From the NCBI GenBank assembly GCA_021772655.1, contig JAJFLM010000202.1, positions 1-43,886 on the forward strand: 43,886 nucleotides of DNA, in the 5' to 3' direction. Positions 34,601 to 37,325 of the stretch are shown here, piece by piece; position 1 is the first letter of the stretch, and every line of letters begins with the position of its first letter. This DNA is from Deltaproteobacteria bacterium. GTDB lineage: Bacteria; UBA10199; 2-02-FULL-50-16; JAJFLM01. The notes under the pieces are model-generated. The model made no database searches. It had not been told where the DNA came from and worked only from the letters and a program-made list of their open reading frames with translations. The position numbers and the translations under genes are program-made.

Positions 34601-35705
34601 CATCCCATAATAAGCGATAACTCAGATCGCGCACTTGAAACTCTTCAAGGTCAATGTTCACGAGAATGGGTTTGCCTTGGGCCGCATAATACTTAGCCGC
34701 TTGAAAAATTTTTAACAAACGCGCCCCAGCCTCAACACGAACCTGCTGCTCTGCTAGCGCCTCAAAACGGGGAGTTAACGCCGAGAGTTTCACGGACACG
34801 TGACGCACCGGCACCCCGCCAGGCGTTCGGCTTTCACCTTGATAATGATCCGCCCACTGATTCATTAAGTTGAGTACTTTTTCAGTATAGTCATCGGCCT
34901 CCGGCTGACTCACCACCCGTTCGCGTACCACATCCAACGAAGTATGAACCCCTTGGGTTTGCAATTGTGCTGCTGTGTTTAATGCCTGCTCAATGGTTTC
35001 CCCAGCCAAGAAACGACTGGCCATCTGTTGAATCCCTTGTTTCAAACCCCAGGCGATTAAGCGGTCGGGCAACCAAGACCAAGTCCCGACTTTCAACAAT
35101 AGTCCTAATAGACCTTTCGCCTTGATTTCATGTCGCGGAAAATAACTCCGTAACAAAGTTGCAATCCGCTCTGGATCCTGTTGCCCGGCAGCTACATCCA
35201 TGAAAGCAATCATGCGGCGCTTTAAGGCTTCATCAGAAAGCATCTGCGCAAAGATATGATCTTGCAAACGGCGGATGGGCCCACGACGAAACGCCTTGGC
35301 GCGGGCAAAGAGACGTTCCCCCCAAGCAGCCGCCGTTTCCGCAACGAAGTCACTTTGATCGCTGGTTAAATTGAGGGAAACGGGTTCACCTTGAAAGTTT
35401 TTTACATACGAGGCCGTACTGGAACGAGCCTGCAAGGTTTGATGCAAGGCCAACAAGGAATGTAACCCTTGATGCCGCGTCTGCGGCTCTTGAATCATTT
35501 GATGCAACTGTGCCGTGGTCTGCGCTGTCACGGAGTCGCCAAAACCTGACAGCATGTCCTGAGCTGGCGTGACGGCGGCCGCTAAATCCCCATCCGCCAA
35601 CAGCTGTTGCAGCTGAGCCGATTGATCCATCCCTAAATTGTGAGCGGATGCCAGTAAAGGCGCAAGACTTAAGCTTGCCGACGCACCCATAACCCCATAA
35701 ACCAT
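31680..35705 (-). CDS. putA: Bifunctional proline dehydrogenase/P5C dehydrogenase with extra ~115-aa N-terminal extension and C-terminal ALDH-like domain
   Basis: PRODH motifs SVKLSAL, IDLEE, IQAYL, RVVKGAY, SHN, YLVRRL; ALDH motifs ISPFNFP, FTGS, AETGGKN, GQRCSA, EEIFGPV, PFGG. Confidence 0.93.
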   Translation of the reverse strand: MVYGVMGASASLSLAPLLASAHNLGMDQSAQLQQLLADGDLAAAVTPAQDMLSGFGDSVTAQTTAQLHQMIQEPQTRHQGLHSLLALHQTLQARSSTASYVKNFQGEPVSLNLTSDQSDFVAETAAAWGERLFARAKAFRRGPIRRLQDHIFAQMLSDEALKRRMIAFMDVAAGQQDPERIATLLRSYFPRHEIKAKGLLGLLLKVGTWSWLPDRLIAWGLKQGIQQMASRFLAGETIEQALNTAAQLQTQGVHTSLDVVRERVVSQPEADDYTEKVLNLMNQWADHYQGESRTPGGVPVRHVSVKLSALTPRFEALAEQQVRVEAGARLLKIFQAAKYYAAQGKPILVNIDLEEFQVRDLSYRLLWDVFNHPNLAGWEEAGLVIQAYLKDSEVELMRTVDAARLTGKRPQIRVVKGAYHKYEQIEAVRQGWDVPVFLRQADTNRNFRRLVELTLLNQDVLRPATGSHNIRDVGYSQEVREALGVSRDLLEAQVLLGVGDPIAAAVKVLGIPARYYGPFGTTGEAIGYLVRRLAEVGPQSAIGQTHVAGEFDDYQRNHADPHQRGEHPLGSGQRQQPRFELTPEADFSDLAVHQQMEQALTKLLDQPLTQRPVVAALIGDELTRIHDAQRLQPILNPANLSEPVGQVVFANQADIDRALVAAQQGYAEWSGFSSDKRARALEHAATLVMERQYEIAAAIVAEAGKPWDSALAEIREAVDFLRSYALDSRREALNYTARGVGVAISPFNFPFAITMGQLAAGLALGNAMISKPAEDTPLSAKLAVEILRDAGVPKAAIQLLPGLGATVGHALVAARQIDFVSFTGSLTTAQLIQRTAAAFPPQRGGVKIVVAETGGKNPMIVDDTADLDVAVAAVLQGAFQFNGQRCSATSRVIVVASQYERFIQRLIEGAQAMVLGNPRNPYVQLGPQISQASLEKAQSYVEQGLAASHADLVYKGKVSHLTDHGFYMAPHIFTHVMPESPLAQEEIFGPVLSVIRAAGFDEALAIANDSPYALTAGLISRDPEHISQFFNRMEAGNKYVNRSQTGARPWETPFGGFKNSGTGPKAGGRHIVARFGKPKVQSRRSSDESLRAYSEEKTVTHREHIEDRLKSTRKIQQQWSTSSLDTRLDLLHSLRAEIAQLTTEINQAETSTSRLTVAELNTIDTWLATQAHQLPQYLVPTETIGLPGERNEIGHDQPLGVGFVWGERESFSDMFCAAAAAVAMGNAVLLPDSCPASITIQSLFERAGAPTLLVATFSMQSRAMILQAPQLDFVVAHGPTAAVVQLMTLAVSAETSAQRTNFLRFIGVDDQTTESRYLSYFAHETVRTERTLRHGADLDLR

Positions 35706-35712
35706 GGCTCTG

Positions 35713-35739
35713 TCATCGGGAGGGGCAATGGAAAGTTGC
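35713..35739 (-). promoter_or_regulatory. Shared sigma-28-like promoter motif, copy before putA
   Basis: GCAACTTTCCATTGCCCCT-CCCGATGA, fitting inside a 42-bp intergenic gap, 7 nt before the ATG. Confidence 0.75.
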
Positions 35740-35747
35740 TGGTAAAA

Positions 35748-37325
35748 TCAACTATTTAGTAACCGAACACCTTCGCAAGCTTCATGCAAATATTCCAAAA
35801 CATTTGAAAGCTCATCGCCCTCAAGTGGACGCGGTGTAAACTTACGATAAGCCCCTGGAAGGCCTGATCGTCGATAGTAGTCCTGTCCCGACTTATAGAT
35901 ATCGCCTAAATTGACCATTAGAGTTAATGCCGCTTCTAAAAATGCAGGGTCATTAAGAATAGGGTGTTGCACGGCAAGACGCGCCGTAGAAAAATTACTG
36001 GTGGCTTTGTCACGAACCAAACGAAAAGTATTTCTTTGAAATTCACCTCTGAGTTCCTCAGCACTCATGAGATTTTTTGATCTATTATTTTTTAAATTAT
36101 CTAAGGTAGGCAAGATAGTTTCTCGGAATAATTCAAACCAACTCAATAACTGTTGGTCTGAAAGCGGTCGGTGCCCATCCTGAGAAACTTCCAAGCGTGC
36201 CGAAACAATACGCCCTGCCTGACGCCTTAAATCCCAAATCGCCTTGACTGTTCCCACTAACACACCATGCCAAGGGCCATTGAGCGGACGATAACTATGC
36301 CGACGAGACATGGTTTGAGTATATTCTTCATAATACCCAGGAAGCTGCTCCGCCAAAATACCGGCAACCGGCCATCCATAATTACCAAAGGGCCTCACCC
36401 AACGTTCCATTAACAAATCATTAAAATCTTCCGATAAATCCGTATTCGACAAACCAACGATAGAAAATAAACTATTAAAAGCATGCTTAATGTCATCAGG
36501 GGCTGGACGACGCCGTGGTAAATAAGTAACCATCAACATATAATCAGCATCACTTATAGCTTCATCACCAAACAGCAGCTCGTAGGCCGTCGTATCTTCC
36601 TCTAAAAATAACTCTTGAAATAGCTGAGGGTCGCTTAAAATTCTTTGCAAAGCTCCTGTATCATTCATCGCCGCACCTGGAATCGCCTCCTGAAAAACCT
36701 GGCGATCCGTGACATACGCCGCAATAGCCTCGGCTATTCGGCCTTTATAATGGTTCATCATTTGCTTCGCCCCATCACTTTGCTGCATGAGCGAACTTTC
36801 TAAACGTGCGCGAATCATTTCAGCACGTAGCTCGCGAGCCTCGGGATTAAACTGACCGCGATAAGTCTCCAACGAAAACAAACCCGTGCTATCGACGCGA
36901 AGCCATTTTCCAGTAATATACTTCTCAGCTAAACTGACCAAGGGCGCACCGCGATCATGCAAGGCTTGTTCGTCTATCAAAGCATGGCGCGCCTGGGGAA
37001 TATTACTGATTAATTCCACTAACTGAGGGCGTGATTGAACCTGAGTAAATAATTGATGAGCGGCCGCGATGCGATCTGCAACAGACAAATAATCATCACC
37101 CAGTTGATGTAAAGCAATGATGCCTAAACTATTCCAGGTGCGATAACCTAATACATGAAAGGCACTGACTAATTGGCCCACATGATGTTCTGCATGATCT
37201 AAACGGGTATTGCTAAGCGCTTGATCAAGCCATTGAGCCACCGTAGCCGGCCTTGCAATGGTGCTGGAGGCCAAGAGTTGAGATGAATCCAGAATGGTCG
37301 AAAATTGAGTGCCAGAAAGCCACAT
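35748..37325 (-). CDS. Hypothetical helical protein sharing an N-terminal domain with the adjacent PutA
   Basis: 525-aa ORF; residues 17-99 align with PutA residues 17-94; the remainder is not recognised. Confidence 0.85.
   Translation of the reverse strand: MWLSGTQFSTILDSSQLLASSTIARPATVAQWLDQALSNTRLDHAEHHVGQLVSAFHVLGYRTWNSLGIIALHQLGDDYLSVADRIAAAHQLFTQVQSRPQLVELISNIPQARHALIDEQALHDRGAPLVSLAEKYITGKWLRVDSTGLFSLETYRGQFNPEARELRAEMIRARLESSLMQQSDGAKQMMNHYKGRIAEAIAAYVTDRQVFQEAIPGAAMNDTGALQRILSDPQLFQELFLEEDTTAYELLFGDEAISDADYMLMVTYLPRRRPAPDDIKHAFNSLFSIVGLSNTDLSEDFNDLLMERWVRPFGNYGWPVAGILAEQLPGYYEEYTQTMSRRHSYRPLNGPWHGVLVGTVKAIWDLRRQAGRIVSARLEVSQDGHRPLSDQQLLSWFELFRETILPTLDNLKNNRSKNLMSAEELRGEFQRNTFRLVRDKATSNFSTARLAVQHPILNDPAFLEAALTLMVNLGDIYKSGQDYYRRSGLPGAYRKFTPRPLEGDELSNVLEYLHEACEGVRLLNS

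Follow-up and report, generated by a model that had tools for sequence, protein, structure and literature searches.

Family-specific conserved Sec signal peptides are known, with YSIRK and ESPR as examples, and effectors of the Salmonella SPI-2 system carry a conserved N-terminal translocation domain of ~140 residues, with the motif WEK(I/M)xxFF, on unrelated C-termini. The signals of type III secretion substrates are N-terminal, occupying the first ~25–50 residues of unrelated cargoes, with Ser (and Gln) abundant and acidic residues absent (PMC2690842). In Chlamydia, a housekeeping enzyme has been described as a type III secretion substrate (PMC9251005; preprint 10.1101/2020.10.11.335026), and CT295 phosphoglucomutase and glycogen enzymes are described as intact metabolic enzymes that have an N-terminal export signal and act outside the bacterium (PMC9251005, PMC4829429, 10.1101/2020.10.11.335026). 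Polymorphic toxins place a conserved N-terminal trafficking domain before variable C-termini (PMC3482391), and a needleless, basal-body-like type III system, T3SS*, has been described in the former deltaproteobacterium Myxococcus xanthus (PMC12075869). Here we describe a short, uncharged N-terminal leader with a core of the LLAS type, found on two adjacent genes, one for a PutA protein and one for an orphan protein, in a 43,886-nucleotide contig of an uncultured deltaproteobacterium (JAJFLM010000202.1, assembly GCA_021772655.1; "the window" below means this whole stretch of DNA). The leader is carried by about 60 proteins of the same genome, with looser versions on up to about 130. The window is contig C116 of the metagenomically assembled genome (MAG) G000, which comprises 3.67 Mb in 474 contigs with 93% completeness and 7.8% contamination; the phylum was sampled with 93 species genomes of a single class.

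Like the Salmonella translocation domain, the leader is a conserved N-terminal region on unrelated C-termini, and it differs from that domain in length, in motif and in that secretion is proven for the Salmonella proteins. It is similar to Sec signal peptides in its N-terminal place, its length and the small terminal residues that would fit a signal-peptidase site, but it has no basic n-region, only a weak hydrophobic core, and cargo of cytoplasmic type. With the known type III signals it shares the extreme N-terminal place, the richness in Ser, the lack of acidic residues and the variety of unrelated cargoes, and an export apparatus is encoded in the same genome; unlike those signals, which have no conserved core, it has one of the LLAS type, it is also free of basic residues, and its secretion is predicted only. 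The Chlamydia enzymes belong to a different phylum, no conserved motif was seen in the accounts of them, and no host is known for the organism that carries the leader.

Results

An N-terminal leader shared by some 60 proteins, PutA and the orphan among them

The orphan gene lies upstream of the PutA gene on the same strand, with a gap of 42 bp between them. The two genes and the parts of them that matter here are as follows.

31680..35705, (-): PutA gene, an open reading frame (ORF) of 1341 aa with leader, helical N-extension, linker, PutA_N, proline dehydrogenase, aldehyde dehydrogenase and C-terminal domain
35643..35705, (-): PutA leader, residues 1–21, uncharged and ending in LLASA; LLAS core at 35646–35657; 23.7 bits at offset 16 in the position matrix described below
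35421..35630, (-): PutA post-leader helical module, ~residues 26–95, a predicted four-helix unit (AlphaFold)
35331..35420, (-): PutA linker, ~residues 96–125, between the N-extension and PutA_N, modelled at low confidence (predicted local distance difference test, pLDDT, 26–41) with no secondary structure
35748..37325, (-): orphan gene, an ORF of 525 aa whose very small family is marked by a conserved [VI]RPFGx[YF]G motif
37263..37325, (-): orphan leader, residues 1–21, ending in LLASS and predicted as coil; LLAS core at 37266–37277; 26.7 bits at offset 16 in the position matrix
36996..37241, (-): orphan post-leader helical region, residues 29–110, the stretch best conserved between the orphan and its homologue P0004 (BLASTP)

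The PutA protein is a bifunctional proline dehydrogenase/1-pyrroline-5-carboxylate (P5C) dehydrogenase with all three domains on one chain: PF18083 (PutA_N) at residues 126–232 (37.7 bits, cut-off 25), PF01619 (Pro_dh) at residues 241–536 (204.6 bits) and PF00171 (Aldedh) at residues 632–1077 (448.9 bits). The usual domains start at residue 126, and the ~125 residues before them are without domain assignment. In this N-terminal part D27 is the first charged residue; the AlphaFold model, built on 6 sequences, has a pLDDT of 28–31 across residues 1–20 and of 72–87 across residues 26–92, where it forms four helices, and the linker differs in sequence and length among six PutA orthologues.

The sequence-only reading of the window had proposed that PutA and the orphan begin with a homologous domain of ~80 aa. 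The motifs on which it relied all lie where it placed them (in PutA, LLAS at residues 17–20, AQ at 30–31, SGF at 53–55, LHQ at 67–69 and QAR at 92–94; in the orphan, LLAS at 17–20, AQ at 30–31, SAF at 54–56, LHQ at 72–74 and QSR at 97–99). Pairwise comparison of the first 110 aa with shuffling did not set the two apart from random expectation, with a Smith–Waterman score of 35 versus 29.6 ± 5.5 (2000 shuffles, z 0.97, reached by 16.1%) and 12 ungapped identities versus 8.9 ± 2.8 (17.6% of 5000 shuffles reach 12). BLASTP of PutA against the orphan returned no N-terminal high-scoring segment pair, the best pair lying elsewhere (E 1.5), and phmmer --max with the 125-aa N-termini against the 16,949 six-frame ORFs of the genome found neither from the other at E ≤ 10. 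A hidden Markov model (HMM) of six PutA N-extensions placed the orphan 206th (E 180), and HMM-to-sequence searches failed in both directions. The best explanation is that PutA and the orphan primarily share a lineage-specific leader of ~20–25 residues rather than a common 80-residue domain. The leading part of the proposed domain stands on firm ground, and the ~75-residue stretch that follows it is retained below as a weakly supported extension.

The starting clue to the leader came from a search with an HMM of the N-terminal region of the orphan family. Its best non-self match in the genome (E 0.02), an SF2-helicase-like protein of 833 aa encoded on contig C376, has an N-terminus that itself reads ...SGSLLASSTF. 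We counted LLAS in all open frames of at least 100 aa in the genome, defining as N-terminal the span 10–30 residues after the first in-frame Met. The tetrapeptide was N-terminal in 53 of 137 occurrences, as against ~9.8 expected from the share of positions or ~6.9 from the interior rate (Poisson 8e-29). In a permutation control, LLAS was found 53 times N-terminally and 59 times in the interior, whereas 11 other orders of the same letters were found 5–23 and 41–70 times, respectively. We regard the existence of the leader as nearly certain.

The leader consists of Met, 8–24 uncharged residues, the core [LM][LMF]A[SAG][SATGQ] and then polar sequence; behind it follows a polar linker, a helical extension or, at once, a catalytic domain. 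In the LLAS-anchored sequences the residues before the core are almost exclusively Ser, Thr, Ala, Leu, Met, Gly, Asn, Phe and Gln, with Ser enriched at positions -3, -2, -7 and -8 relative to the anchor. The core L-L-A-S-[S/A/T/G/Q] is near-invariant across the 53 seeds, the residue at +4 being S in 23, A in 9, T in 6, Q in 5 and G in 5. The core draws on every one of the six Leu, four Ala and six Ser codons and must therefore be selected at the protein level; this full synonymous diversity rules out a DNA-level repeat as the source of the motif.

An iterated position matrix, applied at a threshold of at least 18 bits, gave 64 N-terminal versus 2 interior matches, the interior offering ~9 times more positions, and brought in the core variants LMASA, LLAAS, LLAGS, LFASS and VLASA. 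The lone LLASC case is an ordinary lipoprotein and was left out of the matrix. After removal of six short or low-complexity frames, the final leader set comprised 60 proteins, including PutA, the orphan and a diacylglycerol (DAG)-kinase-like protein also encoded in the window. A further 79 ORFs, among them a 681-aa gene of the window, begin with at least 16 uncharged, non-hydrophobic residues and have no strict core. A keyword-based literature search, limited in extent, turned up no description of an LLAS leader.

In its chemistry the leader differs from the ordinary Sec and lipoprotein signals of the genome. The first charged residue lies at a median position of 27 in the leader set versus 3 in 1,795 other ORFs, with no charged residue before position 19 in 56 of the 60 leaders, and Ser and Thr together make up 27% of the first 20 residues versus 13% in the other ORFs. 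The best 10-residue Kyte–Doolittle hydropathy has a median of 1.5 in leaders as compared with 2.9 in a set of 222 G000 N-termini that resemble classical signals; the leader value also rules out a membrane helix. Both the positively charged n-region and the hydrophobic core of a Sec signal are missing, and the periplasmic and lipoprotein genes of the same genome do carry ordinary signals. A core ending in A-S-[S/A] or L-A-S would suit the small -3/-1 residues of a signal peptidase I site. A lipobox is ruled out because no Cys follows the core, and NCBIfam, which holds models of sorting signals, gave no match in the N-termini of 19 leader or neighbouring proteins.

Cargoes and arrangement of the leader genes

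The cargoes of the leader are unrelated to one another. Outside the window, 38 of 57 leader proteins have no Pfam family (39 of 60 over the whole set). The 19 that could be assigned include a FAS-like megasynthase, a 2483-aa FHA protein, a PlsC-type acyltransferase, phosphofructokinase (PFK), a SufS-like aminotransferase, two LamG proteins, a malic-enzyme-like protein, HATPase, HAD, GNAT, GT28, FGE-sulfatase, an adenylate cyclase, the SF2 helicase, glutamate dehydrogenase (GDH) and a Ser/Thr kinase; in the window, the cargoes with Pfam families are PutA and the DAG-kinase-like protein. Residue 29 of GDH, directly behind the leader, is already the start of its conserved domain, and the catalytic motif of the DAG-kinase-like protein follows just as immediately.

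The 60 leader genes are spread over 43 contigs and form 13 adjacent pairs. Tandem paralogue pairs are frequent (contigs C52, C125, C300, C235, C354 and C345; loci L052/L053, L056, L073/L074, L065/L066, L085/L086 and L080/L081), with two LamG proteins and a START-like trio as examples, which suggests local duplication of tagged genes. The malic-enzyme-like protein, of 688 aa (L070, on contig C282 of G000), has orthologues with 58–64% identity across families (L115, L116, L117) and contains an additional N-terminal block, RYxLPxT[DE]YF, outside its Pfam coverage.

The sequence-only reading had likened the architecture of the pair to that of polymorphic effector and trafficking domains. A conserved, trafficking-like N-terminal module on unrelated cargoes is indeed present, on ~60 proteins rather than two, but the polymorphic-effector part of the comparison fell away. 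Pfam and NCBIfam searches found no known trafficking domain (LXG, PAAR, RHS etc.) in the PutA N-extension, in the orphan or in P0003, the divergent neighbour of the orphan. As in the polymorphic toxins (PMC3482391), a conserved N-terminus precedes variable C-termini; the shared element is here ~20 residues long, however, and instead of toxin tips with immunity genes, for the latter of which no targeted search was made, we find intact metabolic or signalling enzymes and orphans.

Distribution of the leader among relatives

A 22-column model of the 60 leaders had 32 matches in G000, as against 0–2 per genome in the remaining 92, and this strict LLAS form is therefore specific to the genus. Uncharged variant leaders nevertheless open the orthologues of PFK, DAGK, the malic-like protein and PutA in G001 and G002, which represent the family's two other genera; the cores there are VAAST, LAAT, VLAAA, VLASA or VMAAT. 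Variants are retained by the DAG-kinase-like orthologues of both G002 and G001, and are carried by the PutA proteins of G001 and P0005. N-termini of the uncharged, non-hydrophobic kind are found in 15 of 214 ORFs in a 400-kb sample of G002 versus 131 of 1943 in G000. In a 400-kb sample of G075, a member of another family, 3 of 217 ORFs have such N-termini, none of them leader-like, and the malic-like orthologue of G010 has no leader. Since the orthologues in sister genera carry variants while the G075 sample and the G010 orthologue do not, the leader is a family-level trait added to pre-existing proteins.

A possible helical module behind the leader

A homologous helical domain of ~75 residues that moves between cargoes could follow the leader in both PutA and the orphan, and perhaps also in the helicase-like protein of C376. 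Such a domain would be compatible with the leader, and we consider it a real but minority possibility. With the leaders removed, hhalign of the orphan and P0004 against the six PutA N-extensions scored 21.4 (P 0.0036) over 74 collinear columns, in the register proposed by the sequence-only reading, compared with 8.3–14.5 (P 0.07–0.72, 10–28 columns) for five decoy profiles from other leader-bearing paralogue families and 11.4 for a reversed profile. With the leaders included, the score rose with the depth of the alignment, from 19.5 (P 0.014, 42 columns) with 3 PutA sequences to 22.2 (P 0.004, 74 columns) with 6, the PutA module being aligned to orphan residues 33–110; none of 100 column shuffles reached 22.2, the maximum being 17.2. 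Helices are predicted at matching places (PutA 15–38, 41–54, 61–72 and 77–95; orphan 29–38, 42–58, 66–75 and 82–97), and residues 102–172 of the C376 protein matched the orphan-family profile with P 0.0037 over 68 columns.

The pairwise z and the failed HMM-to-sequence searches reported above count against such a domain, and so do several features of the profile comparison itself. As a single sequence, the orphan takes rank 9 of 59 leader proteins against the PutA profile; the hhalign probability is just 8–9%, from very shallow profiles (2 and 6 sequences); and the C376 protein compared with PutA reached only P 0.13. On the structural side, the AlphaFold model of the orphan has a mean pLDDT of 38.9, which makes its helices uncertain, and the PutA module is a generic four-helix bundle whose best Z of 8.4 in a fold search is below the caution level of the tool for helical folds. 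The four-helix module may be homologous in PutA, the orphan and one helicase-like protein, which the profile data support weakly.

Relatives of the orphan and of PutA

The orphan turned out to be not wholly alone. It had no match in 40 related genomes, and a word-indexed search of 5.8 billion clusters returned only the orphan itself. Exhaustive HMMER comparison with 1.84 billion representatives identified a single homologue, P0004 (589 aa, E 8.8e-20), collinear with it from residue 17 to the C-terminus. A profile run over the 93 genomes added a distant member of 601 aa in G010 (L025:868-2673, (-)), which has the [VI]RPFGx[YF]G motif, and otherwise matched only short frames in G073 and G074, from the same family; a match in G042 was dismissed as the antisense strand of a transporter gene. 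Two metagenome scans (alignments A2 and A3) confirmed no locus, and a search of the ESM Atlas gave no usable match. The orphan, P0004 and the G010 protein form a tiny family with the shared [VI]RPFGx[YF]G motif and a C-terminal block, predicted to be all-helical, for which no known fold or function was matched. Across these relatives, the N-terminal region of the orphan travels with its own C-terminal region.

Orthologues of the PutA protein were identified in G001 (54% identity), G031 (42%) and G029 (43%), and the orphan is not upstream of PutA in any of the three genomes. In whole-protein searches a comparable N-extension was present in G001, G031, P0005, P0006 and P0007, and absent from the G029 orthologue. 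Used alone as a query, PutA residues 1–130 had no matches, and of two scans of genome contigs for relatives of the N-extension the first found none and the second two loci. The PutA N-extension is lineage-specific and fast-evolving.

Secretion systems encoded in the genome

A single export gate of the SctV/FlhA type (784 bits) is encoded in the genome, on contig C57. The cluster on this contig, at ~3.5–24.6 kb (loci L105 and L106), contains genes for SctD-like (FHA-YscD-like), SctJ, SctL stator, SctN ATPase, YscO-like, SctP-like (FliK/HpaP-like), SctQ (FliM/N-like), FliO-like, SctR and SctT proteins, together with a TPR chaperone and a sigma factor, and the flagellar rod family (Flg_bb_rod) was not detected. 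Judged by predicted gene content, this cluster looks like a complete type III system of the injectisome kind that lacks flagellar rod genes. The gene directly after sctT starts MSILLASGG..., and its homologue in G002, ~20 kb from the SctV of that genome, has a leader-like start. FHIPEP (PF00771), the export-gate family, occurs in 91 of the phylum's 93 genomes, an indication that the phylum as a whole may live by a type III system.

Neither a needle gene nor a secretin was recognised in the C57 cluster. In this it is similar in overall kind to the needleless system of M. xanthus (PMC12075869). A T2SS/T4P-like (type II secretion/type IV pilus) cluster lies on contig C405 of G000, at ~16–29 kb; it includes pseudopilins and GspE/F-like genes, and its secretin, at 998 aa, is uncommonly long. 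TssC and VirB4 were not found in the 93%-complete assembly.

Other features of the window

Two further genes of the window bear on the leader.

39535..40692, (-): diacylglycerol-kinase-like gene, 385 aa, with Pfam DAGK_cat at residues 23–162 and a leader of 23.9 bits in the position matrix
40639–40692, (-): leader of the DAG-kinase-like protein, residues 1–18, with the core LLAAS and the catalytic domain directly after it
29628..31673, (+): 681-aa protein, convergent with PutA, with a leader-like start of 25 uncharged residues (29628–29702) without the strict LLAS core

In the 681-aa protein the first charged residue is at position 26, and the sole Pfam match, to a methyltransferase, is below the cut-off. 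The leader type accounts for four of the seven genes at 29.6–40.7 kb. The orphan and its divergent neighbour P0003 have no Pfam family at E ≤ 0.1 and no NCBIfam family at E ≤ 0.01. Three ORFs of 339–420 aa, at 37578–38756 (+), divergent from the orphan, at 27634–28653 (+) and at 1–1260 (-), have neither a Pfam family nor a leader, and the first two also have no NCBIfam family. At 20143–21552 (-), a gene of the phosphoglucomutase/phosphomannomutase family is broken by one in-frame TGA (20638–20640), and its frame runs on directly into the next ORF; the interruption could be a sequencing error, a pseudogene or read-through.

Discussion

We propose that the leader, appended to proteins that already existed, would mark them for sorting or export, and on present evidence we consider this somewhat probable. 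The injectisome-like type III secretion system would be its most likely reader, and the tagged set would then be a secreted or injected repertoire in which orphans stand beside signalling and lipid enzymes of a eukaryote-like kind and some intact metabolic enzymes, PutA among them. Type III export is favoured because the genome has a type III cluster, because the leader is similar to type III signals, and because the Chlamydia enzymes provide a precedent for tagged PutA, PFK and GDH; that type III secretion in particular reads the leader is nonetheless a plausible step that falls short of probable. The proposal in its fullest form, by which a sequence-conserved, charge-free export tag (LLAS-S/A) that evolved in one family routes 60–130 proteins, via the flagellum-independent type III system present almost throughout the phylum, into a partner cell or an extracellular niche, is less likely than not.

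Several observations weigh against export by this route. Known type III signals are degenerate and without a motif, whereas the core of the leader is near-invariant, and for this reason the leader would have to be a variant rather than a textbook type III signal. The export gate is phylum-wide and the leader is found in one family, so that the two do not co-vary. The only secretin found belongs to the T2SS/T4P-like cluster on another contig, and a signal-peptidase site could likewise account for the small residues with which the core closes, so that a Sec-related route is conceivable. No second copy of PFK, GDH or PutA was found in the 93%-complete assembly (blastp, E < 1e-5), which is hard to square with a tag that takes the enzyme out of the cell. 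Finally, the evidence for the strict core is concentrated in G000, with few matches in any other genome, and the evidence base as a whole comes mostly from this single MAG, with its estimated contamination of 7.8%.

The apparent single copies of tagged PFK, GDH and PutA would fit with a tag that acts inside the cell, holding enzymes at the inner membrane face or in an assembly, or marking them for N-terminal processing or turnover. Many of the cargoes are membrane-acting (PutA, DAG kinase, the PlsC acyltransferase, GT28, the FAS-like and START-like proteins), and cargoes require NAD, FAD, ATP or pyridoxal phosphate (PLP). Yet the leader, with its median hydropathy of 1.5 as opposed to 2.9 for real signals, is too polar for a membrane helix; the 93%-complete assembly yielded neither a microcompartment shell (PF00936) nor a family-1 encapsulin shell (PF04454), family-2 encapsulin shells not being part of the search; and 39 of the 60 cargoes are orphans, with several kinase, cyclase and helicase proteins having no link to membranes. 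An intracellular tag is doubtful in our view.

An atypical Sec signal, cut by signal peptidase I after the small residues of the core and sending its cargoes into the periplasm or further out, perhaps by way of the T2SS-like system, is improbable. The 18–29 residues to the end of the core are a typical signal-peptide length, the small residues there would fit the -3/-1 rule, and a T2SS/T4P-like cluster with a secretin is encoded; the positive start is nevertheless lacking in the 56 of 60 leaders uncharged before position 19, the hydrophobic core is weak, ordinary signals are in use on lipoproteins and periplasmic proteins of the same genome, and the cargoes are cofactor- or ATP-dependent enzymes of cytoplasmic types. 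That the similarity between PutA and the orphan reflects chance or composition, with nothing functional shared, agrees with pairwise tests inside the shuffled distribution and is for the leader scarcely credible, being contradicted by the genome-wide enrichment, the positional restriction, the codon diversity and the conservation in two other genera.

It is notoriously difficult to recognise type III and other non-Sec export signals in a sequence. If the export reading is true, the clear consensus of the leader would make it possible to compile all substrates of an uncultured lineage from genome data; the leader would be the first among type III signals whose consensus can be read, and would yield a complete, computable list of effectors. 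The routed set would then span PutA, PFK, GDH and the fatty-acid megasynthase as well as kinases, a cyclase, lipid enzymes and dozens of orphans, which would raise the question of why intact, apparently single-copy PutA, PFK and GDH should be tagged alongside orphans and signalling enzymes of a eukaryote-like kind. The leader also helps annotation: it pins down where ~60 genes start and accounts for the unannotated N-terminal extension of PutA. Should it prove not to be an export signal, it would still be an undescribed N-terminal mark on 3–7% of the larger proteins in a bacterial family.

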